Shown piece by piece: positions 6,729-26,737 of a stretch of 28,070 bases of DNA (positions within the stretch are counted from its first letter, which is position 1; every line of letters begins with the position of its first letter). The DNA is from a virus (taxonomy: Duplodnaviria > Heunggongvirae > Uroviricota > Caudoviricetes). Made by a program: the position numbers and the translations under genes. The notes under the pieces are model-generated. The model made no database searches. It was given only the letters and a program-made list of their open reading frames with translations, and was not told where the DNA came from. The stretch is taken from IMG/VR virus record IMGVR_UViG_2695420596_000005, positions 1-28,070 of that record; one strand, given 5' to 3'.

Positions 6729-7241
6729 TCAGCCAAGCCCGAGCGCGGAACGGATGCGATCGGGCACAATGTCCTTGCCGTCCTTCCGGTAAATGAAGTT
6801 CAGCAGGTCAATCTCCCACAACGGACGATCGTTAACACTCAGCTTGTAGTAGGTGTTTTTAATGGCGTAAGTGTGTGATGTGGCTTCGCCCTGTTTGGCT
6901 TCCCCCATATCAATTTCCGTCACACGTCCGCGCATTTCGACTTCATACAGGTCGCTTTCTGCATCGGTGTAATATTCACCCGCAAAACGCAGCAGCGTGC
7001 CGTCAATCGTGCCGCCATACTTAAGGAACAGCTCACGAACTGCGCCCCCCATGACAAAGCTCGCATCAAGCGCGGAGTCGTCCAGACCGAGATCAATACT
7101 TACCGCCCCCATCATGCCACCACCCCGGTAGCTGTCGGTTTTGCGCGTCAGCTTAGGCAGGGTGACGGACGTCACCTTACCCACTTCGTTTTCACCATCC
7201 ACAAACAGCGTAAAAAAGCGAAGATGTTTTGGCACAGCCAT
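6729..7241 (-). CDS. FII: Tail tube protein, P2 gpFII-like
   Basis: 170 aa, immediately downstream of the sheath gene; size and position match P2 FII. Confidence 0.8.
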   Translation of the reverse strand: MAVPKHLRFFTLFVDGENEVGKVTSVTLPKLTRKTDSYRGGGMMGAVSIDLGLDDSALDASFVMGGAVRELFLKYGGTIDGTLLRFAGEYYTDAESDLYEVEMRGRVTEIDMGEAKQGEATSHTYAIKNTYYKLSVNDRPLWEIDLLNFIYRKDGKDIVPDRIRSALGLG

Positions 7242-8425: not shown

Positions 8426-8582
8426 AGCTTCAGCCCCTTGTATCCGTAAAATGATTCGGCAACAATCATCACCCACCACGCGCGTAATCTCACCCCTGCG
8501 CCGTTCTCCCGACCCGGCGACAACAAAAAGCAGTAACCCCCTCCGCACGCACATGCGACCATGCCGCACAGGGAGGGAACAG

Positions 8583-9683
8583 ATGACCGATACCACCATG
8601 CAATTGCTCAGTCAGGGCACAGACCCCGTGAAAATGCCGGATTTTGATATTCTCGCGGAGGGTAAAACGCTGTCAGGCGTGGCAGAGCGCCTGATGAGCC
8701 TGTCACTGACCGACAACCGGGGATTTGAGGCGGACCAGCTCACCATCACGCTGGATGATGCGGATGGTCAGTTGCAGCTACCGCCACGGGGCGCGCGCCT
8801 GACGGTTCTCATTGGCTGGAAAGGAGAACCGCTGACAGAAAAAGGCACTTACATTGTTGATGAAATCGCTCACGAAGGACCGCCGGACAGGCTGACTGTT
8901 TCAGCCAGAAGCGCAGATTTTCGGGATGAATTTAACGTTAAACGTGAGGTGTCCTGGCATGATGTGACCGTTGAGCGCGTGGTATCTGCCATCGCTCATC
9001 GGTACGGTCTGAAACCGCAAATCAGCGAAATACTGATGGATATCGAAATCGACCACGCCGACCAGACCGAAGAAAGCGACATGTCCTTCCTTACGCGCAT
9101 GGCGGAAATGCTGGGCGCAATCACCACGGTAAAAAGCGGTAATCTGTTATTCATCATGCCAGGCGGTCGCGTGAACGCACTGGGCCAGCCGTTGCCATCG
9201 TTCGCCATCACACGCAGCAGCGGCGATCGCCATCAGTTCCGCATTGCTGACCGCGAGGCGTATACGGGTGTACGCGCCTACTGGCTTGATCTTAATTACG
9301 GGAAAAAGAAAAAAGTCAGCGTGAAACGCCGCAAACCGAAAAAAGAGAAAAGCAGCAGCCGTGAAGGTGACTATATGGAAGGTGCGGAAGGCAACGTGTT
9401 TGTGTTACGCAAAACTTATCAGAACGAGCAGGCAGCAAGACGCGCAGCGGCGGCAAAATGGCAGCAGCTACAACGCGGAGCCGCATCATTTTCCATCACG
9501 CTGGCACGTGGACGAGCAGAACTCTACCCCGAAATGCATGGCACGGTAACAGGATTTAAAAGCGAGATTGATAATCAGGACTGGATCATTGCAAAAGCCG
9601 AGCACACCATTGATAACAGTGGCTTTACCACGCAGCTTGAGCTTGAAGCCAAAATCCCGGAATGGATAGCAGAAACAGAGTAA
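8583..9683 (+). CDS. D: Late tail gene D product, P2 gpD-like
   Basis: Start at MTDTTMQLLSQG (ATG 8583) preceded by GGGAGGG Shine-Dalgarno; ~366 aa; lies between FI and the ogr-like gene. Confidence 0.75.
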   Translation: MTDTTMQLLSQGTDPVKMPDFDILAEGKTLSGVAERLMSLSLTDNRGFEADQLTITLDDADGQLQLPPRGARLTVLIGWKGEPLTEKGTYIVDEIAHEGPPDRLTVSARSADFRDEFNVKREVSWHDVTVERVVSAIAHRYGLKPQISEILMDIEIDHADQTEESDMSFLTRMAEMLGAITTVKSGNLLFIMPGGRVNALGQPLPSFAITRSSGDRHQFRIADREAYTGVRAYWLDLNYGKKKKVSVKRRKPKKEKSSSREGDYMEGAEGNVFVLRKTYQNEQAARRAAAAKWQQLQRGAASFSITLARGRAELYPEMHGTVTGFKSEIDNQDWIIAKAEHTIDNSGFTTQLELEAKIPEWIAETE

Positions 9684-9877
9684 ACAACTTAGATGCATTA
9701 GCCCTGACATTTGCTAACGCGCTTACAGCAAGAATCATAACCAATCTGACAGCCTACCCGGTGTCAAAATCAGAAGAGCCTTACATTAGAATATGTTAAT
9801 TTGTAGCAAACAAATTTACACACAAATGATTACTGCTGAAATAGCCCCCATAAATGCCATGTCAAAGGATCCATGTT

Positions 9878-10543
9878 ATGAATATGCAAATTTTTATCGC
9901 ACCAGCAGCCACAGTTGCTGCAGTCTGCCTTGCTGCATATTTTGCTTTACGAAATGAACGTAAAAAGAAAGCACTTGAGATTAGAACAACTCAACTAGAT
10001 CGAATATCTGAGCTAGTAAACCGAGCATCTACCAATTTGATGCAATATACAGGTACTCTTGCCTCTATACTGGAAGCGCACGCCAAAGATAATTATCTAC
10101 CGAACAAAAAATTTGACATTAATGTAATTAGCAAATGGAAAGATTGCCTCGATGAGAGTGAGGTCTGGGCGATTGATATACAGCAACTAAGAACATGTCA
10201 GCACAGTCTGGAGTTTCATCGTGAAAAAGAATGGGCTGAATGGAAAAAAATAATTCCACCATTACTTGATAAAATTAACCAATTTTTTCTCATATCTAAG
10301 CCAGGGCAACCTGTTACGTTTATAAATGGCCAAAACAAAACAGCTGATGAACTACTTGTTTTCTCAAGATATTTGAGAAAACAAACAGCAGAAATTGAAT
10401 CAGTACGTCAGCTGTTACTTTCTCAAATGAGAGAGGAATTCATCGAGTTAACTAGCTTTGAACCTGTCACAATGTTTAGCTTATTTAAATCAATAAAGAA
10501 AAATGTCATGCAATTTTTCTGTATCAGTGCTCTTAAAAATTGA
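9878..10543 (+). CDS. Hypothetical membrane-anchored protein (AT-rich accessory gene)
   Basis: Start MNMQIFIAPAATVAAVCLAAYFAL gives one N-terminal hydrophobic helix followed by a charged ~200-aa domain. The region looks markedly AT-rich by eye. P2 has no gene between D and ogr. Confidence 0.6.
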   Translation: MNMQIFIAPAATVAAVCLAAYFALRNERKKKALEIRTTQLDRISELVNRASTNLMQYTGTLASILEAHAKDNYLPNKKFDINVISKWKDCLDESEVWAIDIQQLRTCQHSLEFHREKEWAEWKKIIPPLLDKINQFFLISKPGQPVTFINGQNKTADELLVFSRYLRKQTAEIESVRQLLLSQMREEFIELTSFEPVTMFSLFKSIKKNVMQFFCISALKN

Positions 10544-10558
10544 CGCTCTGTTGCAAGC

Positions 10559-10581
10559 AACCCCAGTGTTAAACTGGGGTT
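10559..10581 (+). terminator. Hairpin terminator candidate after the accessory gene
   Basis: AACCCCAGT-gttaa-ACTGGGGTT followed by ATTCTTGC. Confidence 0.45.
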
Positions 10582-10692
10582 ATTCTTGCTAAGAGACCTT
10601 TCTACGGCATCAGTAAACAAAACGAACTATCAGTTGGAGTCTGAGCAAGTTCAGCCTAAACTAGCGACAGCACTACGTTAAGGGAGGTCGCT

Positions 10693-10953
10693 ATGTTCCG
10701 TTGTCCGCTTTGTGGCGCATCTGCCCGTATCCGCACCAGTCGTCCGGAAAATGATTCAAACACCGTGCGGCAAAAGTATTACCAGTGTAACAACCTGGAA
10801 TGCGGCGTATGCTTCTCAACACTGGAAGCTTTCCATAAATTCACATCGAAACACGCCTCCGGCATCCACTCTTCAGAAGGTATCCCGTGGCATGAGCTGC
10901 CAGCTTCACACAGGGGAAACAATCAGATGAGCTTGCCTTTACCTCAGAATTAA
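10693..10953 (+). CDS. ogr: Zinc-finger late transcription activator, Ogr/Delta family
   Basis: MFRCPLCGASARIRTSRPENDSNTVRQKYYQCNNLECGVCFSTLEAF: CxxC...CxxxxC arrangement and similarity to P2 Ogr. Strong AAGGGAGG Shine-Dalgarno. Confidence 0.85.
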   Translation: MFRCPLCGASARIRTSRPENDSNTVRQKYYQCNNLECGVCFSTLEAFHKFTSKHASGIHSSEGIPWHELPASHRGNNQMSLPLPQN

Positions 10954-11092
10954 CAGGCAGAATTGCCGGAGTAACAAAAACGCGATAGATTACGCGCGGG
11001 TGCCTTTCGGCTGATGGTCGGAGGGAATACCCGAAGGCCAGATGTGGAAAGGCCCCGGAAAACATCTCTGTTTAACCGAGGCCCTAACCGCA

Positions 11093-12181
11093 TTACCTTG
11101 ACAAGTGAAAGGTTAGCGCCTCTCCGGAAAAGGAGCAAGTGCTTGTATGGGTCCACCACATATTGCAATTTTTATTCTCTTTTAAAATATATTCCACGGG
11201 CGTCATTAGTGCGAGCGCCTTGTGGGGTCTTTTGCTGTTATACAGCACCAGATATTCCGCCAGCTTCTGGTTAAATAGCGCCAGATCTTCAAAGAGTAAA
11301 ATCTCATTAAATTCAATAAACTGCTCTCTTAACGTCCGGTTAAAACGTTCACAGATAGCGTTCATTTTTGGCGTGTAGGGATAGGTCCAGAGGTGTTTGA
11401 TAGCGGCTTCCTGCAGCGTTTTGTCGAAGTTTCCCAGGAACTCTTTTCCGTTATCTGTGATTATCTGGCTGATACCGACCGGGAACAACCGGGCTGCGCG
11501 GCTGAAGAAGTGATTGACGATATCACTGTTGAGTGACGGCACAGCCAGCGCCAGCGCGTAATTGCTGCATTCGTCGATCATGGTGATGACATAGCGACGC
11601 AGTTCGCCCATTCTGAGCTCAATGGCGTCCATCCCAATGAGCTCACCTGTCTTTACCGGGCGGTAGTGCTTTGGCCTGCGGGGTTTGGCAGACCGCTTTT
11701 TGACAAGCAGTGCCTTCCCCCGCGATCCCAGACGCACAGGTATCATCCGCATTTTATCATGTGCGGCAGCGATCATTCTGCCGATGGTGGAAACACTCGG
11801 ACAGGCCAGATAGCGCTGTTCGCACCAGGGCTTCAGGCGAACAAAAATCTGCTCTTTACCGAGGTTCGGCAGCTCTGTCCTGAGGCGTCGAATCTCTTTC
11901 AGCACATCGGGATGCCAGTGTTTTTTTCGTCGCACCAGAGGTGCCTTACTGTGCGGGATTAGCCCCTCAGGTCCTTCCTTGTTCAGTAACTGACGCCACC
12001 AGTAAAGCGTGCGGCAGGACACGCCAAAGGCTTCAGAAGCTGCAGAAATACCGTGTTTATCCCAGAAGTGCAGAGCCTTCATTCTCATTGTTGCTATATC
12101 AGCCATCACTGAAAGCCTCAACGCATAATCGGCCGTTTGGTAGTACTTAGGATAGCCAACCATCAGATGCTGCATTTGCAT
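11093..12181 (-). CDS. DDE transposase (rve/integrase-core), IS481-family-like
   Basis: 362-aa ORF with N-terminal HTH region, ITDNGKEF and YxPxxN...E motifs typical of retroviral-integrase-type transposases. The last few codons probably read through into flanking DNA. Confidence 0.75.
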   Translation of the reverse strand: MQMQHLMVGYPKYYQTADYALRLSVMADIATMRMKALHFWDKHGISAASEAFGVSCRTLYWWRQLLNKEGPEGLIPHSKAPLVRRKKHWHPDVLKEIRRLRTELPNLGKEQIFVRLKPWCEQRYLACPSVSTIGRMIAAAHDKMRMIPVRLGSRGKALLVKKRSAKPRRPKHYRPVKTGELIGMDAIELRMGELRRYVITMIDECSNYALALAVPSLNSDIVNHFFSRAARLFPVGISQIITDNGKEFLGNFDKTLQEAAIKHLWTYPYTPKMNAICERFNRTLREQFIEFNEILLFEDLALFNQKLAEYLVLYNSKRPHKALALMTPVEYILKENKNCNMWWTHTSTCSFSGEALTFHLSR

Positions 12182-12216
12182 AGTGCAATCTCCCCTTACT
12201 TATCCGGAGGCAATTA
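11110..12216 (-). mobile_element. Insertion sequence, IS481-family-like (~1.1 kb)
   Basis: Single DDE transposase ORF. The right boundary is set where identity to the tfa copy at 940-1220 begins (12217/12218). The left boundary is approximate, set from an imperfect terminal inverted repeat (GTTAGCGCCTCTCCGGAAAAGG versus TAATTGCCTCCGGATAAGTAAGG). Confidence 0.6.
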
Positions 12217-12217
12217 A

Positions 12218-12499
12218 CCATACGATAAATGGGATGGTGAAAAATGGGTGACAGATACTGAGGCACAACATCGTGCTGCAGTAGAAGCGGCAGAAACCAA
12301 GCGCCAGTCACTGGCTGATGCGGCAATGGCTTCCATAAGTCTGATTCAGTTGAAGTTGCAGGCCGGGCGGAAGTTGACGCAGGCAGAAACCACCCGGCTT
12401 AATGCCGTGCTGGATTATATAGACGCGCTGAACGCAATGGATATAAACATGGCACCAGATATCAACTTGCCGGAAATACCACTGGCAGCAGCCAGTTGA
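12218..12499 (+). pseudogene. Truncated tail-fibre assembly gene (3' remnant only)
   Basis: Identical to the 3' part of the tfa at 609-1220 from nt ~940 onward; identity starts abruptly at the IS end, leaving the last ~83 codons without the native start. Confidence 0.75.
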
Positions 12500-12505
12500 A
12501 TATAA

Positions 12506-14119
12506 CTAAGCCGCCCTCACGATATAGTTAAATGCAATATTGCGGGGGCGGGTTTCACTACCACCTGTGTTACCAATACTTCCTCGTGAATGAAGCGTTG
12601 GTGATGGAATCAAACTCCCTCCTGTATTTGTGGCATCAAGCCCCCTGCCTTGCGTATATGTTTTTTTGAAAATTGTGGCCAACTCCCATTCATCCTTTGT
12701 GTCATATCCATCGTTAGCTACAACAATATGGCGGTGTTTTTCCAACATCCCGTTTTGAATGCTCAATAAAGCGCGTGCCGCATCAATTCCTCGCCCATCA
12801 TCCCAGCCACGGATAAATTCACCGCGTAAGTCTGGTAATTTATTGGTGGGGTAAGCCCTTGCCAGTTTTGGGTACTTTTCAGAAGAAAATGCTGCGCCGT
12901 TACATTTCAGCCATCCCGTTGGCGGCGTGGCTGAGGGCCATGGAACGGGCACACCAACGGGCAGTGCAGAGCCTTCCCCCAAACCAAGGTAATCAAGAAC
13001 TCCCTGAGTGCTGGTTTTACCAAGAATGGCACGTCCAACACTTGTCAACGCGGTTAACGCGGCACGATCTGCCCCTGTAAAATATGGGAGTTTATCTGCT
13101 GATGTAGCAAGCTCTGCCAGCGCCGTCAGGGTGGCATCCTTCGGTTGCTTACCCGCAAGCGCGTTAGTCATGGTGGTCGCAAAATTCGGGTCATTGCCCA
13201 GCGCCGCAGCCAGTTCGTTCAGCGTGTTCAGTGCATCAGGTGACGAATCTACAAGTGCGGCAATCGCGGCCATAACGAAAGCCGTGCTTGCGATCTGGGT
13301 ACTATTAGTCCCCTGTGGCGCTGTTGGTGTTGTTGGCGTTCCGGTCAGTGCCGGGCTGTTTAATGGTGCTTTCTTGTTCGTTTCATCCATTACCGCCTTA
13401 ACAGCTTTTGGTGTCGCTGCCAGCGTTTCAGACGTGCTGTTCGTGGCGCTACTGAGCTGAACAATTCCTTTTTGTGTAGTGGTGGCGTTCTGGGCGGTAT
13501 ATTTCCCGTTAGCCAGGTCATATGCAGCCTTAACCGCTTTCGGTGTTGCGGCCAGTGTTTCTGATTCACTGTTAATTGCACTGCTTAACTGAGTAAAACC
13601 TTTTACGGTCAGCGAGGCGTCCGGGTGACGTCGTGACTGTTCGTGCTCTGAGATTTTATCATCCACATATTTGCGGGTTGCCAGAACCACAGACGGGTCG
13701 ATTTTCAGCGTGATGGCTTCGGTGTTCGTGACAACCAGAATCATGCGGATAGTCTGGGTGCGTCCACTGCCTTCCTGCAACTGCGGTTTGTACGTTTCCG
13801 GGCAGTTTGCCACCGCAATGAGTACACCTTCATCATCATAAAGACCAATCTCACGGATCCAGAATCCTCCCTCGTTTTCAGGGATGATTTGCTCCGCAAT
13901 AATCTGGCTCTGATTGTTAGGGTCAACACTCAGAAGATTCAGCGGTGCAATGCGTTTCTGGTTAATCAGTTTTGTTTGTGCAGGGTCTGGTGTTGGTAAC
14001 ACACCATTTGCATCACCAACGGCCATTTGCGTCAGATTCAGCTTACTGCCGAGCATCGTCGCGTTAGCCAGTCGTGCCGCGCCCTGATTAGTCAGAATGG
14101 CGTAGTATTTCACTGTCAT
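12506..14119 (-). CDS. H: Tail fibre protein, P2 gpH-like N-terminus with the Sv2 C-terminal domain
   Basis: 537 aa. N-terminal two-thirds similar to remembered P2 H (AVANCPETYKP, EHEQSRRHPDASLTVKGFTQLSS, TPKAVKAVMDETNKKAPLNSPALTGTPT). C-terminal 158 aa identical to cassette 1227-1703. Confidence 0.9.
   Translation of the reverse strand: MTVKYYAILTNQGAARLANATMLGSKLNLTQMAVGDANGVLPTPDPAQTKLINQKRIAPLNLLSVDPNNQSQIIAEQIIPENEGGFWIREIGLYDDEGVLIAVANCPETYKPQLQEGSGRTQTIRMILVVTNTEAITLKIDPSVVLATRKYVDDKISEHEQSRRHPDASLTVKGFTQLSSAINSESETLAATPKAVKAAYDLANGKYTAQNATTTQKGIVQLSSATNSTSETLAATPKAVKAVMDETNKKAPLNSPALTGTPTTPTAPQGTNSTQIASTAFVMAAIAALVDSSPDALNTLNELAAALGNDPNFATTMTNALAGKQPKDATLTALAELATSADKLPYFTGADRAALTALTSVGRAILGKTSTQGVLDYLGLGEGSALPVGVPVPWPSATPPTGWLKCNGAAFSSEKYPKLARAYPTNKLPDLRGEFIRGWDDGRGIDAARALLSIQNGMLEKHRHIVVANDGYDTKDEWELATIFKKTYTQGRGLDATNTGGSLIPSPTLHSRGSIGNTGGSETRPRNIAFNYIVRAA
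12974..12999. other. hix/gix-like recombination site within the H gene (reverse complement identical to site A)
   Basis: TTCCCCCAAACC-AA-GGTAATCAAGAA is the exact reverse complement of 134-159. Confidence 0.55.
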
Positions 14120-14724
14120 GCGTTTACTCTCAGATTATCAATTAAATGAATGGCTGGGGCAGGGAAATAATCCCCTTCGACAATAATGGACTCCGGGGTG
14201 TAGGGATAAACCGTCAGGGCATCGCCGTGATAGCATCCCGTACCAACGAAAATCTTTCCGTTCACACTCAGGCTGATCGCCAGCCCCGTCAGATGGCGAC
14301 TTACTGGTTTTGCATCCGCAATAAGGCGCTCAAGTTCCTGATACATTTCATCGGTGATGCCCTGATCAAGTACTCCGACAACAATGCGAAATGTTCCCGG
14401 TTCCTCGTTGAGTTGCCACCACTCCTTTACTTCAATCAGGTAGCCGAGAGGCTCCACGGCTCTTCGCAGTGCGCTGATGGTCCCTTTGTGTCGGTGTATC
14501 AGCCATGCATCACGAATCACCTGTCGCTTTGTCTCTTCCGGCCAGTTGCGATCCCAGCGGTCAACGGAAAATGCCCAGGCGAGATAAGGCAGCAGATGCA
14601 CCGGGCAGGTGTCCGGCGACCACAGCGTGTTGAGGTCTACCGGAATGTCTGTAATGCGTGTTCCGACGGCTTCGGCACAACGCATGAAATTGCTGGCTGA
14701 TGGTGGTAACAACGAATTACTCAT
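14116..14724 (-). CDS. I: Baseplate protein, P2 gpI-like
   Basis: Start taken at MSNSLLPPSASN (14724); similar to remembered P2 I (LLPYLAWAFSVDRWD, RLIADAKPVSRHL). Overlaps J stop and H start. Confidence 0.8.
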   Translation of the reverse strand: MSNSLLPPSASNFMRCAEAVGTRITDIPVDLNTLWSPDTCPVHLLPYLAWAFSVDRWDRNWPEETKRQVIRDAWLIHRHKGTISALRRAVEPLGYLIEVKEWWQLNEEPGTFRIVVGVLDQGITDEMYQELERLIADAKPVSRHLTGLAISLSVNGKIFVGTGCYHGDALTVYPYTPESIIVEGDYFPAPAIHLIDNLRVNA

Positions 14725-15613
14725 TGCGTCCACCTTCGCTGATGGTGAATGACTCACAGCGCGCCGCCTGTATGTCGCTGATGGCCATATTCTGTGTGGG
14801 TTCGATTATCTCCACGCGTTGCACACCGTGCACATGCAGTGCGGCAGCAATGGCGGACAACGCCACGTCCTGACCGATAAGCCCCTGCTCAGCCAGCCAC
14901 TTCCTGAACGACGATTCAGCCGCGGCCAGAATAGGTTCGGATTCCGGGCCGGGGTAAAAGTACAGTTTTGCATTCAGCCGCCATGTCACGATTCTGGCGC
15001 TCTGTACGGTCAGGCGGTCGGCCACCGGGCGGGTATCCTCTGCATTCAGAACGGCGCGAACGGTATTAAGCAACGCCTCCGTTGCTGTGCCGTCGCCTTC
15101 AGTGGACAGGATGGAAACCGTCACACAGGCCGGAGACGGGCTGATGGCCCGCGCATCACGCACCAGACCGCTGGCGCTGCGTGCAAAATACTCGTATGCA
15201 CCTGACGGACCAGCAACACTCAGGCCGTCATACGCCCGTTGCGCCCGCAATCTCAGCGAGGTGTCACTCTCCATCACCGCGTCGGTGGTATCCGTTGCCG
15301 GAGTGATAACCAGGCGCTTTGTGTTCATATTGCCCGCGAGGTTGTCCAGGTTTGTCCCTGAACCGTGGCTTAACATGCAGGCGCGAGCGCCCTCGTTAAC
15401 CCGCTGGCGTAACAGCATTTCACGAAAAGACATGGTTTGAGCGATAACGTTCAGGGGTTCCGATTCCAGCTCCAGCGCGGCGGAGACGGCTTCACGCTGT
15501 TCGGCAGGATAGGACGCAATCATCATGGCCTTTGTGTCAGCCAGAATTGCCTCAAAATCAGGCTCCGCGATGATGGCGGGTTCCGGTAACTGGGAAAGGT
15601 CAACAGCAGGCAT
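14717..15613 (-). CDS. J: Baseplate assembly protein, P2 gpJ-like
   Basis: 298 aa, between W and I in conserved order. Confidence 0.8.
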   Translation of the reverse strand: MPAVDLSQLPEPAIIAEPDFEAILADTKAMMIASYPAEQREAVSAALELESEPLNVIAQTMSFREMLLRQRVNEGARACMLSHGSGTNLDNLAGNMNTKRLVITPATDTTDAVMESDTSLRLRAQRAYDGLSVAGPSGAYEYFARSASGLVRDARAISPSPACVTVSILSTEGDGTATEALLNTVRAVLNAEDTRPVADRLTVQSARIVTWRLNAKLYFYPGPESEPILAAAESSFRKWLAEQGLIGQDVALSAIAAALHVHGVQRVEIIEPTQNMAISDIQAARCESFTISEGGRNE

Positions 15614-15616
15614 GAT

Positions 15617-15967
15617 TTACTCTCTCAGCGTGATGGTTAATTCAACATTCTGCATGGTCTGCATGACAGTGCCCGACAGCGTCACCCCGGCGCGGCCTCC
15701 TGCCTTCCAGACAACGTCGATAGCGTCCAGGGCAATGCGGGGTTCCCATCGTGTCAGCGCAATCACGGCAGCACTCATGCATTGCAGACGCGTGGTGTTA
15801 TTCATGGGTTCGTCAATCAAATCAGGCACAAGGCTGCCATATTCCCGTCGCATAACCCGGCTTGCCAGCGGGGTGGTCAGGATGTCCCTGACTGACTGTT
15901 TCAGGTGCTCCATATCGTTCAGGTTTCCCGTTCCGTCCGGGTTCATTCCTGTGTAGCGGGTTGTCAC
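15617..15967 (-). CDS. W: Baseplate wedge protein, P2 gpW-like (gp25 family)
   Basis: 116 aa, size and position as P2 W. Confidence 0.75.
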   Translation of the reverse strand: MTTRYTGMNPDGTGNLNDMEHLKQSVRDILTTPLASRVMRREYGSLVPDLIDEPMNNTTRLQCMSAAVIALTRWEPRIALDAIDVVWKAGGRAGVTLSGTVMQTMQNVELTITLRE

Positions 15968-16545
15968 TGCGGGCCTCCTGTCGAATAGCTGCCACCTTTA
16001 ACGCCACCGTGTTTATGCGTATGCACTGTGATGCCGTTTGAGGTGAAATTGCCGCCGCTGTGCGTGATATTGCCGCTCATCTTTCCCCCTTTTGTGACGT
16101 CAAGCGTCGCCGTTCTCAGAAGGTCTGTGCATTCCACGACGGGCGTATCCAGTGTCACGCTGACGGATGCCTGCAGGGTGGCTGTTTTCATGCCGCTAGC
16201 GCTCAGTGCGCCTGCGTCCGCGTCGTAGCGGAACACCGCGCCATCCGGCGCGCTGACCACGATTTCTTTCAGGCTTTTGCCGGGGGCCGGAATAGCATCA
16301 CTCCACAGGCTGCCAATTATCATGGCGGTTTCCGGGTTGCCGCCAATGCAGGCAATTACCACCTGTTCGCCTGGTGATGGCGGCAGCCACACATTGAAGG
16401 CTCCCGCGCGCGTGGTGTTCCAGCGCAGCCAGCCTGTTTCCAGTTCGCCGCTGCGAACGCGCACGCGCCAGGACTTCTCATCAACTTCAGAGATGATCCC
16501 GGTGCGAATGATGTTGCTCAGCAGTCGCATGAGTTCTGCGCTCAC
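15964..16545 (-). CDS. V: Baseplate spike/assembly protein, P2 gpV-like
   Basis: 193 aa immediately upstream of W with overlapping stop/start. Confidence 0.75.
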   Translation of the reverse strand: MSAELMRLLSNIIRTGIISEVDEKSWRVRVRSGELETGWLRWNTTRAGAFNVWLPPSPGEQVVIACIGGNPETAMIIGSLWSDAIPAPGKSLKEIVVSAPDGAVFRYDADAGALSASGMKTATLQASVSVTLDTPVVECTDLLRTATLDVTKGGKMSGNITHSGGNFTSNGITVHTHKHGGVKGGSYSTGGPQ

Positions 16546-16575
16546 CGTACAGCCTCCGCAATCCGGCCCAGCACC

Positions 16576-16692
16576 GTGTTATAAATCAGGCGCTCATCTG
16601 CCTGGCTGATACCCAGCAGCTCACGTACCGGGTATCGCCATCATCGGTATCGGTGATGTCGTCCTCTGCGGGTCCGGGGTTGGTTCTGGCAA
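16576..16692 (-). CDS. Small acidic ORF (38 aa) in the M-V gap
   Basis: ATG at 16692 preceded by CAGGAGTG Shine-Dalgarno; encodes MSMVARTNPGPAEDDITDTDDGDTRYVSCWVSARQMSA. Not in the supplied track (too short). Confidence 0.2.
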
Positions 16693-16803
16693 CCATACTC
16701 ATGGGGTTCACTCCTGAAAAAATCGGGCGGTGGGTGCGCGGTGTAAGCGGTCACGGAGTCAAACCGGAACACCGCGCACGCCGCCCGCTGACGGGGTCAG
16801 TCG

Positions 16804-17604
16804 TTAACCGCGCTTCGCCTTCTGCGTCGCGGTGGTTTTTCGTGTTGCAGGCTTCCGCGTTGTCTTTTTACTTTTGCTGCTTTCGTCCTGCGCCTGCGGT
16901 GTGCTGGCATCTTCTGGTGCGGCTGCGGAATCGGCTTTTTTCAGGGCGCGGGAAAGGGTTGCAATCTCGCGTTTCACACCTGCGTTCGGGTTCAGGTGCA
17001 TTGCTTCGCGCAGCAGCTTCAGTGACAGGGCCATGCTGTCCGCATCACTCAGGCCACGGCGGGCAAAGGCGCACGCTTTGCATAATTTGGCGCGCACTTC
17101 GTCCGGCATGTCCTGGTCGGTGACAATCTCCCGGAGGGTGTCCAGTGGTTCGATAAAGGCGGACAAATCCGCGTCGGCATCCGTCCCGGCCTGCGTCAGT
17201 ACCGGATTACAGATTTCTTCGGTCAGTACCGTGGCAGCAGTACGGCCAAAGTTATCCGGCATGATGAGGTTGTGACGGACCACATACGCACCAATACGCA
17301 ACGCCAGCGGAAGATCGCCACAGTCAATCGCCCACACCATCAGCGTGGCAATCACTTCATCCTGCTGCCCGCCGTCAGCCTCCAGCGTTCCCTCAATCCA
17401 GCCGGAAAAATCCGGCAACAACTCTTTTTTGATGGCGGCTTTCGCGCTTCTGGCCTGTACGCCCTTAAGCCGGGCCTGTGCCAGACGCAGACGATACAGC
17501 ACCTCTTCATGCGCGGTACGCGCGGCGTGGTCCACGCCTTCATTCGCCCGGCCTGCGCGCTGTGCCATCACGTTCTGCCAGTGTTGCTGTGCAGGAGTAA
17601 TCAT
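16804..17604 (-). CDS. M: Terminase small (endonuclease) subunit, P2 gpM-like
   Basis: 266 aa with lysine/arginine-rich C-terminal tail and DMPDEVRAKL motif remembered from P2 M; downstream of the capsid gene. Confidence 0.8.
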   Translation of the reverse strand: MITPAQQHWQNVMAQRAGRANEGVDHAARTAHEEVLYRLRLAQARLKGVQARSAKAAIKKELLPDFSGWIEGTLEADGGQQDEVIATLMVWAIDCGDLPLALRIGAYVVRHNLIMPDNFGRTAATVLTEEICNPVLTQAGTDADADLSAFIEPLDTLREIVTDQDMPDEVRAKLCKACAFARRGLSDADSMALSLKLLREAMHLNPNAGVKREIATLSRALKKADSAAAPEDASTPQAQDESSKSKKTTRKPATRKTTATQKAKRG

Positions 17605-17649
17605 TTTTTCTCTCCGTTACAGGCGGGCATGATGCCCGCCGTGAGTTGA

Positions 17650-18702
17650 TTAGCTGTCGGCGAACTTCAGGCCAGTAACCATCGCGCACTTGCCATAGTC
17701 TTCAACGACATAAGCGTCATTGATGGACTGGTAGGTGGCGATGCGGTTGTATTCCGGCTCGTCTTTCATCAGGCGACGCATTGAACCTTTCTGCCAGTAA
17801 ATCGACAGGTTGTTGAACGAGGTGATCAGCATCGTTGCATCCGGGAAGAACGGTGCAAGGAACACGCCCAGCCCGCCAATGGTGCGCGATGACAGGATGA
17901 GCTGCCCGGCAAGTAATTCCGCATTGGGATTCTGGCCGCTGATGCTGTTCAGCACGGGCAGACGCAGCGAGTTAAACAGGTTGCGCCCCATAATCACCAC
18001 AAGGTCGTCAGCTTCCTTGTGCCATTCATCCAGCAGGGATGAACGCGCGTCCTGTACCAGTGCATCAGCGTTCGCATACTTACCCGCGTGCGCCACGGTG
18101 TTGTCCATGTTGCGGGAGGTCAGCGTCACGTCATTCATAACGCGTTCGCTGGCGTCGGTTCTGATGTGCTCCAGCCATCCCACGTTAACGTCCTGAAGCA
18201 GCTTGTTGGTGCTGAAGTTGGACTCATCCGCGTGAGACGTGCCGTTGAAACCGATCATGATGCGGTCAAGCGCCACCTGCCGGGCAATCTGTGCGCTGAT
18301 GCGGGACTGAAAATCAGGATGTGCCGCCCAGGCATCAAGCTGCGGATATGAAATAAACGTGTCGTAGTTCACCTGTTCGCACTGGTATTTGCGGTTTTTC
18401 AGATCAACCACGTTATTCGGGTTACGGCGTTTTGTGCCGTCATAACCGGTATTCGTGCGTGCAATTGGCCCGGTGGTGTCCAGGAGGATTTTTTCGCCTT
18501 TCTGGTCGGTCACGCCGATCACGTTAATTCTTTTTGTAAATTCGGTGCTTTCCTTTGAGGCGTTTCCAAAACGCTGCTGCACCGAGGGTTCCACGGTAAA
18601 TCGCGATACCAGTGCGGAAACCGGAATATTATTAAGCGACGCCTGCTGCGCCATATAGCAACCCAGCTTGTTGCGGGTAATATCTGACATCACCAGATTC
18701 AT
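17650..18702 (-). CDS. N: Major capsid protein, P2 gpN-like
   Basis: 350 aa; FTVEPSV, IMIGFNG, MLITSFNNLSIYW, YVVEDY motifs align with remembered P2 N. Confidence 0.9.
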   Translation of the reverse strand: MNLVMSDITRNKLGCYMAQQASLNNIPVSALVSRFTVEPSVQQRFGNASKESTEFTKRINVIGVTDQKGEKILLDTTGPIARTNTGYDGTKRRNPNNVVDLKNRKYQCEQVNYDTFISYPQLDAWAAHPDFQSRISAQIARQVALDRIMIGFNGTSHADESNFSTNKLLQDVNVGWLEHIRTDASERVMNDVTLTSRNMDNTVAHAGKYANADALVQDARSSLLDEWHKEADDLVVIMGRNLFNSLRLPVLNSISGQNPNAELLAGQLILSSRTIGGLGVFLAPFFPDATMLITSFNNLSIYWQKGSMRRLMKDEPEYNRIATYQSINDAYVVEDYGKCAMVTGLKFADS

Positions 18703-18725
18703 AAAAAATTTGCTCCTTTGTCTTA

Positions 18726-19562
18726 TCAGAAGTCAGCCAGCTGGTCGGAGGCTGCACCTGTTGCGGTGAACCGGTTCTGCGGATCGCCGTCCTGCGTGCG
18801 CAGTTTTTCCTTCAGTGCTGCCAGCTCTGTGGTCAGTGACGTAATTTTCTGGCGGTCCTGCTGATGGCGGGTTTCCAGCACATTAAAACGGTCGATAATG
18901 TCGGCCTGTGACGTTGCGACGCCTTCCACCGCTTCCTGAATACGGGAAAAACTGGCGTCATCCGCTTTGCGGCCACGGCCAATAATCCCCATTACGCGGT
19001 TAAACCACTGGGTGCCTTCTTCCTGGCGTTGTTCTGCCATTTCGATGATTTCAGACTCGATGGCTTCGGAGATAAGCGGCGCTTCACCCTGGATACTGTT
19101 GAACGTCATCACCGCCTGACGTTGCTGTGCCGTGAATTTCAGGCGCTCAGTGCCCAGGCTTGCCGGGGTGTCGGTCATCGCCAGCCCGACCAGATAGGCG
19201 CGCCCGTTAACGGAGAACTGCGGGTGCAGTTCGATACTGGAATAGATTTTCTTGCCGTCCGCGACAAGCTGCTTCATGCGCTCGGTCGGTTCGATTTCTG
19301 CATACAGCGCAGTACGTCCGGCCAGCGGACCTTCCGTAATGTCTTCCGTACTCAGTGCGGTGACATCGCCCATTGCGGAAAATTCGCTTGACGGGCATGG
19401 CGAGAGATAGTGCTCAACGTTCACGCGGGCAGCGTAAACATCCGGGTTGAAGTTCTCGGCGGCTTCACGCAGATGCACCGGACTGATTTCACGGCCATCA
19501 ACAGTTGATCCGGAGACAGCCACGCGAAACTTTTTGCGGGATGTCTTTTTTTCATTAGCCAT
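18726..19562 (-). CDS. O: Capsid scaffolding protein, P2 gpO-like
   Basis: Start placed at MANEKKTSRKKFRVAVSG (ATG 19562, GAGGGG Shine-Dalgarno); similar to the remembered P2 O N-terminus and central YLVGLAMTDTPASLGTE. Confidence 0.8.
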   Translation of the reverse strand: MANEKKTSRKKFRVAVSGSTVDGREISPVHLREAAENFNPDVYAARVNVEHYLSPCPSSEFSAMGDVTALSTEDITEGPLAGRTALYAEIEPTERMKQLVADGKKIYSSIELHPQFSVNGRAYLVGLAMTDTPASLGTERLKFTAQQRQAVMTFNSIQGEAPLISEAIESEIIEMAEQRQEEGTQWFNRVMGIIGRGRKADDASFSRIQEAVEGVATSQADIIDRFNVLETRHQQDRQKITSLTTELAALKEKLRTQDGDPQNRFTATGAASDQLADF

Positions 19563-19716
19563 AGTTTTTGCCCCTCTGACTGGTTCTTCAGTCATGATGG
19601 CAAAGCGTAACAGGCTGATACAAAGGGCTTTTGTTGTAAGAAAACGGCCAGAACAGGGGGTTAAGGAGAACAGTTTCGCGCGCGGGTAATCTTCCTGTAA
19701 TTACTCAGGGGGAGCA

Positions 19717-21468
19717 ATGATTCAGGACGCTTTTGTGCGCCAGCGTGCGCGGCAACTTTACTGGCAGGGTTATCCGCCCGCAGAAATATCACGTCTGATG
19801 GGAATAAACCCGAACACGATTTATGCGTGGAAAAAACGTGACCAGTGGGATGAAACGCCACCCGTGCAGCGTGTCACGCAGTCCATCGATGCGCGTCTCA
19901 TCCAGCTTACTGAAAAACAGAATAAAACAGGCGGTGACTTTAAGGAAATAGACCTGCTGACCCGGCAGCTTAAAAAGCTGCATGATGGCCAGCCGGATGC
20001 GACGGCCGCAGGAAAGAAAGGCCGGGCGAAAAAACTCAAAAATCATTTCACGCCGGAACAGATTGCCGCACTGCGGGAAAAAATCATCAGCAGGCTGGAG
20101 TGGCATCAGCGGGGCTGGTTTGACTCCCTGACCCTTTGCAGGGAAGCCGGGATACGTAACAGGATGATCCTGAAATCCCGACAGATTGGGGCGACCTGGT
20201 ATTTTGCACAGGAAGCACTGCTGATGGCGCTGCGTGACGATGTGGCGCAACCTTACCAGCGTAACCAGATTTTTTTGTCTGCGTCGCGTCGTCAGGCGTT
20301 CCAGTTTAAAAGCATTATTCAGAAGGCCGCGGCTGAAGTTGATGTGGAGCTGAAAGGGGGCGATAAAATCATCCTCTCCAACGGCGCAGAGCTGCATTTT
20401 CTCGGCACTTCTGCTGCGTCGGCACAGTCCTATACGGGCAATTTTTATTTTGATGAATTTTTCTGGGTCAGTCGCTTTGCTGAACTGCGCAAGGTGGCTG
20501 GCGCTATGGCAACCCTCAGCGGACTGCGGCGCACCTACTTCTCCACGCCATCCACCGAAACGCACGAGGCATACGCCTACTGGAACGGCGACCGCTGGAA
20601 TGAGAAAAAGGCCTCGCATAAACGCCAGCGTTTTTCTGTGGACTGGAAAACGCTGCATAACGGGCTTATCTGCCCTGACCGGACGTGGCGGCAAATTGTC
20701 ACGCTGGAAGATGTGGTTAATCACGGCTGGAAACACACTGATATCGACGAAATTCGTGATGAAAACACCGAAGACGAGTTCCTCAATCTCTATATGTGTG
20801 AGTTTGTCCGCGAAGGGGAATCGGCATTTAACCTGAATATCCTGATTGGCTGCGGTGTTGACGGATACGACGACTGGAAAGACTGGAAACCTTTTGCTCC
20901 CCGCCCGATGGGGAATCGTCCGGTATGGATTGGGTATGACGCAAACGGCAGTAGTGGCAACGGCGACAGCGGCGCTGTGTCCGTGGTGGTTCCTCCGGCT
21001 GTTCCTGGTGGCCGTTTTCGAACGGTGGAGACGCGACGCGTTCAAGGGCTGGAGTTTGAAGAACAGGCCAGAGTCATTGAAGAGTTCACGTATCGCTACA
21101 ACGTGGAACACATCGGCATTGATGTGACGGGCGGGAACGGGGAGGCTGTTTATCAGATAGTGAAACGGTTTTTCCCTGCTGCTATTCCGTACACCTTCAC
21201 GCTGTCATCAAAACGGTCGCTGGTACTGAAAATGCTGCACATAATGCGTGCCGGGCGGTGGGAATACGATCGCGCCGAACGCGAGCTGGTCGCGGCCTTT
21301 AACGCCGTGCGTAAGGTGAAAACACCGGGCGGCTTTATCACTTACGAAACGGACCGCGCGAGGGGGATCAGCCACGGCGACCTTGCGTGGGCAACCATGC
21401 TTGCTGTCATTAACGAACCGATTGGCGGCGAAGGAGAAAACGAGCGTTTCACGGTTATGGAGTTCTGA
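19717..21468 (+). CDS. P: Terminase large (ATPase) subunit, P2 gpP-like
   Basis: 583 aa, divergent from O across a ~150-bp promoter region; ATPase-like KSRQIGATW and YFDEFFW motifs; stop overlaps Q start. Confidence 0.9.
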   Translation: MIQDAFVRQRARQLYWQGYPPAEISRLMGINPNTIYAWKKRDQWDETPPVQRVTQSIDARLIQLTEKQNKTGGDFKEIDLLTRQLKKLHDGQPDATAAGKKGRAKKLKNHFTPEQIAALREKIISRLEWHQRGWFDSLTLCREAGIRNRMILKSRQIGATWYFAQEALLMALRDDVAQPYQRNQIFLSASRRQAFQFKSIIQKAAAEVDVELKGGDKIILSNGAELHFLGTSAASAQSYTGNFYFDEFFWVSRFAELRKVAGAMATLSGLRRTYFSTPSTETHEAYAYWNGDRWNEKKASHKRQRFSVDWKTLHNGLICPDRTWRQIVTLEDVVNHGWKHTDIDEIRDENTEDEFLNLYMCEFVREGESAFNLNILIGCGVDGYDDWKDWKPFAPRPMGNRPVWIGYDANGSSGNGDSGAVSVVVPPAVPGGRFRTVETRRVQGLEFEEQARVIEEFTYRYNVEHIGIDVTGGNGEAVYQIVKRFFPAAIPYTFTLSSKRSLVLKMLHIMRAGRWEYDRAERELVAAFNAVRKVKTPGGFITYETDRARGISHGDLAWATMLAVINEPIGGEGENERFTVMEF

Positions 21469-22514
21469 TGAGCAGAAAAAACAAAAAAGTGCGCATGAGT
21501 TCACGCATTGATCTCGCTGATGCGCTCAGGAAAGAATCATCGCTCAGTGCATTCACATTTGATGGTCCTTATCGCCTGACCGGGCATGACCTGCTGGACA
21601 ATATGTACTGTGCTGATAACGGGCGGTGGTATGAAACCCCGGTGGACTGGTACGGTCTGGCAAGAGCAGCCCGGCAAACGTCCTGGCATCAGTCTGCGCT
21701 TTACTTTAAGCGCAATGTATTACTCGGTTGCTACATCCCGCACCCGCTGCTTTCCCGGCAGGATTTCTCGGCGCTGGCGCTGGACTGGTTTGTGTTCGGT
21801 AATGCATTCCTTGAGCTTCGAAGCAATATGCTCGGCGAACCGCTTAAATTACGGCACGCCCTGGCGAAATACATGCGACGCGGAAGCGATCTTGAATCAT
21901 GGTGGTATGTGCAGGATGGTAAGGACGCGTTTCAGTTTCGCCCTGGCAAAGTATGCCACCTGATGAATCCGGATATTAACCAGGAAATCTACGGCATGCC
22001 GGAATATCTTGGCGCATTACTCTCGGCCAGCCTTTCTCATTCGGCGGACATGTTCAGAAAACTGTACTACGACAACGGATCCCACGCCGGGTGCATCATC
22101 TACATCGGTGCAGCGCAGGTAAACCGCGAAAGCATGGACTCCCTGAAAGAAACGTTACAGGGTGCGCGTGGTGGTGGTGCATTTAAAAACGTGCTCATTC
22201 ATGCGCCCAACGGGGGCAAAGAGGGGGTGCAAATTTTGCCGTTCCAGCAGATCACCGCAAAGGATGAGTTCATGAATGTTAAGGCGGCATCCCGTGATGA
22301 TGTACTGGCTGCGCACCGCGTTCCGCCGCAACTGATGGGGGCGATGCCGGGCGAAAAAAGTGCGTTTGGTGATGTGGAGAAGGCCGCGCGGGTTTATGCA
22401 ATTAACGAGCTGATGCCCGTTATGGAGGCTATGAAGCACATCAATGACTGGCTTGGCGAAGAGGTGATCCGCTTTAACCCTTACGCACTGTTAGACACCC
22501 AGCCCACATCCTGA
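21468..22514 (+). CDS. Q: Portal protein, P2 gpQ-like
   Basis: 348 aa, translationally coupled to P, last gene before the cos-proximal non-coding region. Confidence 0.85.
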   Translation: MSRKNKKVRMSSRIDLADALRKESSLSAFTFDGPYRLTGHDLLDNMYCADNGRWYETPVDWYGLARAARQTSWHQSALYFKRNVLLGCYIPHPLLSRQDFSALALDWFVFGNAFLELRSNMLGEPLKLRHALAKYMRRGSDLESWWYVQDGKDAFQFRPGKVCHLMNPDINQEIYGMPEYLGALLSASLSHSADMFRKLYYDNGSHAGCIIYIGAAQVNRESMDSLKETLQGARGGGAFKNVLIHAPNGGKEGVQILPFQQITAKDEFMNVKAASRDDVLAAHRVPPQLMGAMPGEKSAFGDVEKAARVYAINELMPVMEAMKHINDWLGEEVIRFNPYALLDTQPTS

Positions 22515-22542
22515 CGCGCTTCGCTTGTCTGCTGCTTCGTCG

Positions 22543-22567
22543 GGGCATAAAAAATTTATGCCCCGAC
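22543..22567 (+). terminator. Hairpin downstream of portal gene
   Basis: CGGGGCAT-aaaaaattt-ATGCCCCG; no clear U-tract, so terminator function is uncertain. Confidence 0.35.
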
Positions 22568-22983
22568 TCTCCAGCTCCTGTATCAATCAGATAATTTCAC
22601 GACGTCTTCCAGCTTATCGCCATCATCGACGGTCAGGCTCTTACGCAATCCCACCGCGTTGACTGCATGTTCTCGCCGCCTCAGTGCGATTTTGACGGCC
22701 TTATCTGTCACCCCATCAAATCAAAAGCCCTCACGTCTTTTTCACGCTCAGCGTGAGAAATACAGCCATTCTGTTGTGTCGCTGCGACATCGTTCAGGGG
22801 ATGCTATTTACCCCCTGAAACGCGGGCTGTTCCCCCGTCACCTGCGCGCAGAAAAAGCGCGTTTTTTTGTGCACGCACGGATCCCTGACGGATCCAGCCG
22901 CCACGCGGGCCAGAAGGGCAAAAATTCGTTCAAAAAAATTGTGCAAATTTGTGCACTATCGTGCATGTAAATTCATAAAAAAA

Positions 22984-23011
22984 TTACAGAAAAAAGGCCG
23001 CTTTCGCGGCC
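22984..23011 (-). terminator. Rho-independent terminator of the ATPase-protease operon
   Basis: GGCCGC-tttc-GCGGCC stem-loop, 8 nt past the protease stop, followed on the minus strand by TTTTTCTGTAATTTTTTT. Confidence 0.6.
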
Positions 23012-23018
23012 ATAAAAA

Positions 23019-25223
23019 TTACGTGTCGAGAGAAATTTGTGTGCGCAGTTGAATAGGATTCAGAATTGTATATCGCTGGCGAATAACATTATATAAATCA
23101 AAGTCTTTTACCCTTACGCTTATTACCATCGCATATTGCATATCAGGGGCTGAAACTCCCTTAACATGGCGCGAAGAATCTCGGGCATGATACCGTATAT
23201 CAAAAACTGGATCGCTTAATAATGTATCAGCACTGAACTTTTTGCTTCTGTGCAAACAAGTTTCCCACTTATGACCTTCACTCCTACACTCCCTTTCAGT
23301 CTTATACTGGCTTTTTTGACCAAAGAAATCATCTGTATCGGTATCGTCAAGGCCGAATCTTGGGCGGAAAGTTACCTGCATACCGGCCCTTGTATAGTTT
23401 ACTGAATGTTCAGGATCTACTGGGGTTTGAATGCATAAAGTAGCGGTAAGCTCAAATGCTTCGTCAAAGGGAACATCAGGGAATGGGATCGGTGCCCTTA
23501 AATATTTATTTTTTGCTAATGAACCATAGTAAATTACTGTAGCAGTATCATTTGGACAATCGATTAAAACGTTAGGATCCTCACTAAACCGTCCCCAACC
23601 GATATGTTCACGCGAATATTTTCTTGATGTTTCAGCATGATGAACAAGCAACGCTTTCAATGCAATGGTGTTCAATGGAGTTCCTGATAGAGCCGCAACT
23701 CCAGCGGCCGTTCTCAATGCTAATGGAGAGGCATAACTGGTTCCTTGAACTCCAACTATAGAACCAAGCAGAGGGTTGTAAGTGTAAAAAGGCTCGTCGT
23801 CGCTTCCACCAAAAATAACACCATCAGGTTTAACGAATCCGGGGCTTCTGCCTGGCCCAATACAGCTATATGGTGCCCGCCCCCATTTTTCACCGCTACG
23901 ATCAGCAGCACCAATCGCTAGCGCGTTTACCATATCGGAAGGAGGTTGTATTCTCGCTGCATCACCGTCCTCATTGCCATCATTCCCAACAGCAACAGTA
24001 AGTAATATCCCATGCTTAGCACAGATTTGGTCTAAAACAGCAGTCCATACATGAACCTCATCATCACCAATTGGAAGATGAGGACCAATACTTAGATTAG
24101 CGAACTTATAGTCACCACTATCAAGAACGGACTGTATTTTCTTAAGGACATCAAATAAATCCCAATTGCCATTGTCACCTGATGTCGGTGAAAGAACTCT
24201 ATAATGATCTACATTCATAAACGGTCTTTTAAAAGAAGGTGCATTTTCCTCGACACGTCCGAATAAGAAAGTGGATGTCACTTCATTACCGTGCTGCAAT
24301 AATAATCCGCTTGTTTCTTTGGTGTCTGGATACACGTATTCCGTAACCCAATTACTCAAGTCAGCTGTCCCCAAGCCACCATCAAAAATGGCAATACGTT
24401 CGGATTCAAGAACAGCTTTAGAATTAGGGAGCTCCGGTGTAACTATATTAGATAACTTTCTGACAATGTTCGGCTGAGTACACCTGAGAGACGGCATCGG
24501 CCGCACAACGCGGATTAATGAAAAATCGAGTGTTTTTTTCATATCTTCAGGTCGCGCGTGTGCAACGATGAAAGTCAGCCCACCAACTTGGATTCTACTT
24601 TTGTAATCAACAGAGACATCATATTGTGCCGCATAGCTAATATAGGCTTTAACGATATCATCGTCTTCAACCCCAGCATGAAGAACCACTTCAAATTTTA
24701 TCAAATCACTTTTCGCATGCTCAAAATTGCGTGCTCTCTCTTTTCCTTCAAAAAAGCTAACACTTTCAATTTCGATCAAATCCTTTTGTACGCCCTTCGG
24801 AGCTGTAGGGGAATTTAAAATTTCCTTAAATCTTATAACGGCATCATCATCACCGCTAACAAACAGTTGCGCCGTTACTAAGTCCTTATTCTGATCGCAC
24901 TGACGTGCCGCTTTCCGTGGGCGAATGATTACCTGACGGCTGCCGACATCCCGTAAACCTGTCGCTCTAAGCAATCCTTCCGGAAAGTAGCTTTTACCCA
25001 AAAACGCTGGGTGTAAAGTTAAATTGAATACACTCTCCCCCCTTGGCTTAGCCGCATCATCCAAACTGCGAAAGCGTGAGAGTAAAGTATCAATCTCTGG
25101 GTTTAAATGCTCCCTTACTTCTTCAAGAGTATAGGGATAGCGCTTACCATCCCTTCCTTTAGGCAAAGGTTCCTTTTTTGTCAGAACATGACCGTTACCT
25201 AAAAGTAAGTTCCTTTCCATCAT
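23019..25223 (-). CDS. S8 subtilisin-family serine protease with extra N- and C-terminal domains (IetS-like)
   Basis: 734 aa. Catalytic-triad motifs in subtilase order: Asp (RIAIFDGGLG), His (LLQHGNEVTS), Ser (GTSYASPLA), plus VAVGNDG. About 270 aa N-terminal and 250 aa C-terminal have no motif I recognise. ATG overlaps the upstream ATPase stop (ATGA). Confidence 0.8.
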   Translation of the reverse strand: MMERNLLLGNGHVLTKKEPLPKGRDGKRYPYTLEEVREHLNPEIDTLLSRFRSLDDAAKPRGESVFNLTLHPAFLGKSYFPEGLLRATGLRDVGSRQVIIRPRKAARQCDQNKDLVTAQLFVSGDDDAVIRFKEILNSPTAPKGVQKDLIEIESVSFFEGKERARNFEHAKSDLIKFEVVLHAGVEDDDIVKAYISYAAQYDVSVDYKSRIQVGGLTFIVAHARPEDMKKTLDFSLIRVVRPMPSLRCTQPNIVRKLSNIVTPELPNSKAVLESERIAIFDGGLGTADLSNWVTEYVYPDTKETSGLLLQHGNEVTSTFLFGRVEENAPSFKRPFMNVDHYRVLSPTSGDNGNWDLFDVLKKIQSVLDSGDYKFANLSIGPHLPIGDDEVHVWTAVLDQICAKHGILLTVAVGNDGNEDGDAARIQPPSDMVNALAIGAADRSGEKWGRAPYSCIGPGRSPGFVKPDGVIFGGSDDEPFYTYNPLLGSIVGVQGTSYASPLALRTAAGVAALSGTPLNTIALKALLVHHAETSRKYSREHIGWGRFSEDPNVLIDCPNDTATVIYYGSLAKNKYLRAPIPFPDVPFDEAFELTATLCIQTPVDPEHSVNYTRAGMQVTFRPRFGLDDTDTDDFFGQKSQYKTERECRSEGHKWETCLHRSKKFSADTLLSDPVFDIRYHARDSSRHVKGVSAPDMQYAMVISVRVKDFDLYNVIRQRYTILNPIQLRTQISLDT

Positions 25224-26302: not shown

Positions 26303-26359
26303 AAAACCCCCAATAAAACATCAGCTTGTGTAAGCTGGTAACTACATTAATGAAAATCA

Positions 26360-26396
26360 TTGACTAATGTTACCACTCTTGCTGGCGTAATTCAAA
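26360..26396 (-). promoter_or_regulatory. Candidate sigma-70 promoter for the ATPase-protease operon
   Basis: On the minus strand TTGAAT (-35, 26395-26390), 17-bp spacer, TAACAT (-10, 26372-26367), ~60 nt upstream of the ATPase start. Found by eye only. Confidence 0.3.
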
Positions 26397-26680
26397 GAGT
26401 ATCCTTACTTTTTTACTGTATGGATAATCAGCATAAAATCTATCCAGTTGGGTTACTCGAACATACTGTCAATACTTGTTTCCAACGATTGATCAGTTCT
26501 ACAGTTTTATCTCCTTCACTTGTGTTGGCAGCATGCTTATTCCTGAACCAGCTCGATTAACCCATGCTCATCGCGGTAGGGATAGAACGCTGCTAAACGC
26601 TCAAAGTCTGCCTGTTCGTGTGTGTTCAGGACTTTTGCCATGTGTGATAACCTGCGCTATCTGTGGTTGTTTGTGACTTG

Positions 26681-26732: not shown

Positions 26733-26737
26733 TGTCA

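Follow-up and report, generated by a model that had tools for sequence, protein, structure and literature searches.

What became of the genes that normally separate M from V in this P2-family prophage? The late operon of P2 has the order O-N-M-L-X-Y-K-lysA-lysB-lysC-R-S, then V-W-J-I-H-G, and in the 28,070-bp stretch of DNA analysed here (the window) the terminase small subunit gene M (16804-17604) and the baseplate gene V (15964-16545) are only 258 bp apart (16546-16803). The original prediction had noted this short gap, at about 260 bp, and had read the element as a defective, probably domesticated prophage lacking lysis, head-completion and tail-completion genes. The gap is as described. 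What remains is to establish what was lost from it, how, and whether "defective" and "domesticated" are both the right words.

The 28 kb of the window form the start of contig CXZG01000006.1 in a draft E. coli assembly (GCA_001283165.1; contig positions 2-28071). The listing of open reading frames, together with PHROG and Pfam scans, identified a P2-family late region with O, N, M, V, W, J, I and H on the minus strand and P and Q on the plus strand. The head (Q, P, O, N, M) and baseplate/fibre (V, W, J, I, H) modules are syntenic and have PHROG E values from 1e-29 to 1e-230. To the right of the late region are an IetAS pair, a small HTH repressor and a tyrosine integrase. The element is a P88-like prophage (Xuanwuvirus, Peduoviridae, P2-family) integrated beside btuC. 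Megablast against phage genomes gives the genus (95.7-98.6% identity among the matches listed), the integrase and C-type repressor at one end match Pfam Phage_integrase and HTH_3, the att site is chromosomal, and in a second assembly of this DNA the host genes btuC-btuE-btuD come after the integrase. The retained genes are as follows.

2840-9683, plus strand for D: tail genes U, T, E, FII, FI and D, beyond a scaffold join at 12216.
15964-16545, minus strand: V, baseplate spike/assembly protein (PHROG), intact, with a GTG start.
16804-17604, minus strand: M, terminase small subunit (PHROG E 4e-82), intact and 100% identical to the E2348/69 protein.
17650-18702, minus strand: N, capsid, intact.
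18726-19562, minus strand: O, scaffold, intact.
19717-21468, plus strand: P, large terminase, intact.
21468-22514, plus strand: Q, portal, intact.
23019-25223, minus strand: IetS, S8 peptidase (PADLOC E 6.6e-41; Pfam Peptidase_S8).
25220-26302, minus strand: IetA, AAA ATPase (PADLOC E 3.6e-89; Pfam AAA).
26738-27046, plus strand: C-type HTH repressor (Pfam HTH_3), intact.
27096-28070, plus strand: tyrosine integrase, intact and 100% identical to that of E2348/69; its stop codon is the end of the window.

The integrase, repressor, capsid and cargo are thus kept, as had been claimed, together with the portal, terminase and baseplate genes; the tail genes U to D, also counted as kept, are found beyond the scaffold join. 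The cargo, previously described only as an ATPase and a protease (23019-26302, minus strand), is the adjacent IetA and IetS of the IetAS anti-phage defence system, and both of the deletions described below missed it. Its position is the known gpA-gpQ defence hotspot of P2-like phages (PMC9122126).

The closest relative overall is the prophage between ihfA and btuC in E. coli O127:H6 E2348/69 (NC_011601.1, about 1,866,767-1,902,833), a locus whose coordinates are labelled L002 below. It shares with the window element the integration site, the IetAS cargo, the repressor, the integrase and a multi-inversion tail-fibre cassette, with 99.99-100% nucleotide identity across every retained part. However, its L-X-holin-endolysin-LysB-LysC-R-S block and its early operon are both complete, and its hok lacks an IS481-family insertion. 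Gene D is truncated in the E2348/69 reference and intact in the window (8583-9683, plus strand, 366 aa). P88 and the other Xuanwuvirus genomes have the same gene order, including tail genes FI-U on the strand opposite to V-H, and their head, baseplate and tail modules are 94-97% identical in DNA (97.4% and 94.5% to P88). Unlike the window element, P88 is a viable phage with all of the lost genes; its immunity and early region differs, and it is without IetAS. P2 itself has the same functional order, from M through head completion, tail gene X, lysis and tail completion to V, but the lineage of the window element is without lysA, its endolysin is an M15 peptidase, and S overlaps V. Furthermore, a search near V for the strict P2 late-promoter dyad TGT-N12-ACA found no site in either the intact or the deleted phage.

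Alignment to these intact genomes, which had been suggested as the way to define the deletion, gave its endpoints directly. Window 16629-22972 aligns with P88 17238-10896, and window 14281-16634 with P88 22472-20119. In the E2348/69 prophage, window 16629-26559 corresponds to L002 19738-29668, with 1 mismatch in 9,931 bp, and the left flank aligns up to L002 16857. What is missing is 2,886 bp (L002 16858-19743, equal to P88 17233-20118), a segment that is 98.7% identical between the E2348/69 locus and P88. There is a single breakpoint, identity on both sides of it is 99.99% to the E2348/69 prophage and 97.4% to P88, and the two breakpoints share a 6-bp microhomology, CGGGTA (window 16629-16634). 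By our own estimate, the chance of an overlap of at least 6 bp at random breakpoints is about 1e-3; the microhomology would be expected of illegitimate recombination, not of an assembler error.

In both relatives, the deleted segment codes for L (head completion), X, a holin, an M15 endolysin, a DUF2570/LysB-like protein, LysC, R and S, and it is essentially full-length in all 13 phage-genome records of the genus that match at least 80% of it. A tblastn search of the E2348/69 prophage proteins against the window did not find X, the holin, the M15 endolysin, the DUF2570/LysB-like protein, LysC or R; of L, codons 1-25 are left, and of S the final 29 codons. Between M and V, the window therefore lacks six genes of a complete P2-family phage and has two others as stubs. 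The predicted list of losses (L, X, holin Y, endolysin K, lysA/B/C, R and S) stands except for lysA, which was never in this lineage.

The 258-bp gap therefore has three components: the M-L intergenic region, the start of L (its ribosome-binding site plus codons 1-25), and the end of the tail gene S. Its contents, read from M towards V, are these.

16703-16803, minus strand: normal M-L intergenic region, the same as in intact relatives, with a hairpin and the ribosome-binding site of L.
16724-16787, minus strand: very stable hairpin (folding energy -49.1 kcal/mol, z = -5.0; 0 of 200 shuffles fold as well), followed by a U-run at 16717-16722.
16711-16715, minus strand: AGGAG, the ribosome-binding site of L, 8 nt ahead of the ATG at 16702.
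16586-16702, minus strand: scar ORF of 38 codons plus stop, made of L codons 1-25 plus 13 codons in which the S 3' end is read in another frame.
16542-16631, minus strand: remnant of the tail-completion gene S, its last 29 codons plus stop; the TGA stop overlaps the GTG start of V.

The acidic 38-codon ORF with a strong ribosome-binding site had been pointed out before, at 16576-16692. It exists, 10 nt from there, and the AGGAG ahead of it is genuine. Its translation is MSMVARTNPGPAEDDITDTDDGDTR followed by YVSCWVSARQMSA and a stop, and the first 25 residues, MSMVARTNPGPAEDDITDTDDGDTR, are those of the E2348/69 L protein. Because these codons are L and the remainder is frameshifted S, the ORF is a deletion scar and not a gene. 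The true frame of S is still readable, ending in LLGISQADERLIYNTVLGRIAEAVR and the TGA that overlaps the GTG of V. The hairpin and U-run, which are also present in intact relatives, resemble a terminator or attenuator within the late operon. A terminator scan of the gap gave two plus-strand terminator-like matches at background level and missed the M-L hairpin, which was seen only by folding. No promoter was found in the gap by a consensus scan, and the sole Rfam match in 16300-17000 was a chance miRNA, far below its threshold.

A second deletion is found at the other end of the element. Window 26558-28070 equals L002 36220-37732 (100% identity), and the preceding block ends at L002 29668. Alignment to the E2348/69 prophage thus gave endpoints here too: 6,553 bp (L002 29669-36221) are missing at window 26558-26559, with a 2-bp overlap, TA. 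Lost with this DNA are a partition gene, parM, the replication endonuclease gene A and eight small early genes; the first early gene loses 64 of its 92 codons. In E2348/69, gpA matches Pfam Phage_GPA with E 9e-131; tblastn finds it absent from the window. The first early gene has no Pfam match, and it is cox by position alone. With this reservation for cox, the absence of cox-B-A that had been predicted is borne out. The junction leaves one further ORF.

26537-26641, minus strand: second scar ORF, 34 codons, with 28 residues identical to the first early gene and 6 out-of-frame.

This ORF too is a scar, and it should not be called a gene. The deletion places ietA about 235 bp from the remnant of the first early gene. 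Taken gene by gene, the tblastn inventory of E2348/69 prophage proteins against the window gives 18 genes absent and 3 remnants (L, S and the first early gene), and nearly all of the remaining genes are 100% identical to those of the E2348/69 prophage.

Are the junctions real? The source is a short-read draft, and elsewhere in the window there are a scaffold join (an N at 12216) and an exact 771-bp duplication, so that an assembler might have skipped an L-S segment that is in fact in the genome. We consider this extremely unlikely. The source record has no N near 16629-16634 or 26558-26559, and a microhomology of 6 bp is far too short for misleading an assembler. Furthermore, in the Logan assembly of run ERR124658, both junction-spanning 30-mers are present in one 30.7-kb contig, ERR124658_58, which runs unbroken from host ppsR through btuC to int, C, IetAS, Q to M and V, and into H. 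The NCBI and Logan assemblies probably derive from one read set; they are independent as assemblies, not as samples.

The scaffold join does matter for the left part of the window. The base at 12216 (A in the window) is an N in the source record, right after an IS481-family element and before a truncated tail-fibre-assembly gene. Against E2348/69 and P88, block 1-11146 is in the opposite orientation to 12217-28070; its contents are the end of H, the invertible fibre cassette and the invertase, U, T, E, FII, FI, D, a 221-aa gene, ogr and the start of hok. The duplication is exact (938-1708 equals 12217-12987), the start of the window is a contig end inside H, and part of H occurs twice in the window. 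The features concerned are the following.

143-357, 1495-1708, 1934-2150 and 12774-12990: tail-fibre cassette repeats of about 214 bp, about 92% alike, at the heads of three alternative fibre C-termini.
2214-2813, plus strand: serine invertase of a shufflon-like multi-inversion cassette.
11136-12215, at the start of hok: IS481-family insertion sequence.

From the N at 12216, the duplication and the contig end in H, it follows that block 1-12215 is joined by scaffolding only and that its inverted orientation may not be the true one. The order and orientation of the two blocks is then a scaffolding product of the invertible cassette and a multi-copy IS, and on the simplest view the prophage is really collinear with that of E2348/69, with the IS at hok. 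Two prophage copies, or a large IS-mediated inversion, had been considered for this arrangement and were dropped on the N at 12216 and the exact duplication. Eight complete genomes also have an IS481-family element beside ogr. Two H-cassette junctions occur in the one assembly, H|R3 at 142/143 and H|R2 at 12990/12991, which suggests mixed inversion states in the sequenced culture; coexisting inversion isomers have been reported for a P2-like prophage of E2348/69 (PMC4272514). The 221-aa gene (9878-10543, plus strand), between D and ogr, is absent from P88 and may be cargo; PADLOC and Pfam gave no match for it. The question of block order does not affect the two deletions.

The duplicated part of H bears on another possibility, that the genome carries the missing genes at another place, whether in a duplicate late region or in a further P2-like prophage, so that the element is complemented in trans and is not functionally dead. 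At window 1-142 the constant part of H occurs for a second time, directed into the window, and E2348/69 does have another P2-like prophage. However, the extra H fragment at the contig end is best explained by isomers of cassette inversion and by scaffolding, and an identical intact copy would branch the assembly at the junction, through which the Logan contig runs. The P2 replication protein A acts in cis, and its origin is inside gene A; complementation in trans would therefore not restore replication. A diverged P2-like prophage on another contig may still provide L, X, the lysis functions, R and S in trans. We regard this possibility as highly improbable.

What can the remaining element still do? 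P2 does not replicate without gpA and the origin inside its gene, and it does not lyse the cell without holin, endolysin and spanins; L is needed to complete heads, and X, R and S to complete tails. By homology with P2, we infer that the window element could no longer replicate or lyse its host unaided, and that its heads and tails would stay incomplete. The loss of the genes behind this earlier claim is confirmed, and the functional step is drawn from P2. Without the early operon there would be no lytic programme and probably no excision. The surviving repressor should give immunity, and IetAS, from its gene content, should defend; both IetAS and C are present alike in the intact E2348/69 prophage. 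The word "defective" is thus well chosen for an element from which two deletions have removed genes for head and tail completion, lysis and replication.

How widespread and how old is the deleted form? The joined flanks of the M-V deletion occur in 0 of 5,426 complete E. coli genomes, 1,061 of which have both flanks. The junction 30-mer was not found in GTDB representative genomes, JGI metagenome contigs or IMG/VR; as a positive control, the matching intact L sequence was found in 33 IMG/VR contigs. The scar peptides of 38 and 34 codons are in only two assemblies, GCA_001283165.1 and Logan ERR124658, apparently of the same isolate. The deleted form is private to one isolate. The retained prophage has 1 difference from E2348/69 in about 11.4 kb, whereas the host flank from btuC to ppsR (L010 1-8300) has 144 differences in about 7.9 kb, or about 1.8%, starting at L002 38382 inside btuC. 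A prophage this close to identity beside a flank this divergent indicates that two distinct E. coli lineages each acquired, recently and horizontally, almost the same phage at one att site. The deletions are later than the acquisition and are therefore very recent.

We suggest that the element is very probably an ordinary young defective prophage, the outcome of a recent lysogenisation followed by two independent deletions by illegitimate recombination. The infecting phage would have been all but identical to the intact prophage of E2348/69. One deletion joined L, after its codon 25, to the final 89 nt of S, removing L, X, the holin, the endolysin, the LysB-like gene, LysC, R and S, and the other took nearly the whole early operon, including the replication gene A. 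What is left would be a "grounded" prophage whose decay has only begun, and repressor immunity and IetAS defence would have been kept only because the deletions missed them.

The other half of the original prediction was that the element is domesticated, the host keeping a disarmed prophage for the benefit of its capsid, tail, immunity or IetAS, with the deletions fixed by selection. The pattern of loss has some appeal for this reading, since exactly those functions that threaten the host (replication and lysis) are gone and the repressor, integrase and IetAS are spared, and two such deletions fall within a span of almost no point substitutions. However, the deleted form was found in a single isolate (0 of 5,426 complete genomes) and is not conserved in related strains. 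Identity to an intact prophage is 99.99-100% in the retained DNA, against a divergence of 1.8% in the host flank, and with so few changes (1 difference in about 11.4 kb) the element has not existed for long enough that conservation or purifying selection could leave a trace. The intact prophage has IetAS and C as well, no use is known for structural genes in the absence of L, X, R and S, and the junctions are out-of-frame scars. "Probably domesticated" is not supported, and we hold domestication to be very unlikely.

A narrower proposal is that the deletions were selected and not neutral. Two large deletions in DNA with hardly any point changes may be due to selection against a lethal prophage and not to neutral decay: replication and lysis would have been disarmed soon after an inducible, lethal prophage was acquired, with immunity and IetAS kept, and ietAS, now about 235 bp from the C-repressed early promoter region, could be switched on by derepression. 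We think this very unlikely. If it were true, the isolate would be the first step of prophage domestication, caught in the act.

The preferred reading, of ordinary early decay, puts the element in known company. Cryptic or "grounded" prophages that arise from deletional decay include the cryptic prophages of E. coli K-12 and the defective P2-related prophage of E. coli B. These resemble the window element in that essential lytic functions are deleted and integrase, immunity and cargo persist, but they are old, common to lineages and heavily eroded, whereas the window element has two fresh lesions and is found in one isolate. The P2-derived R-type tailocins share P2-type baseplate, sheath and tube genes, but in these the head genes are lost and lysis and tail completion are kept. 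The window element is the opposite, with capsid, scaffold, portal and terminase intact and the lysis cassette and tail-completion genes lost, and it is not of the tailocin type.

The correct label for the element is a defective P88-like prophage carrying IetAS, and this has little importance beyond annotation, where a practical trap is that the order of tail genes in the window is a scaffolding product. As an example of early prophage decay, the element is clean and datable, with two microhomology deletions and otherwise identity to an intact prophage, and it may be of modest use for models of the rate at which prophages decay.
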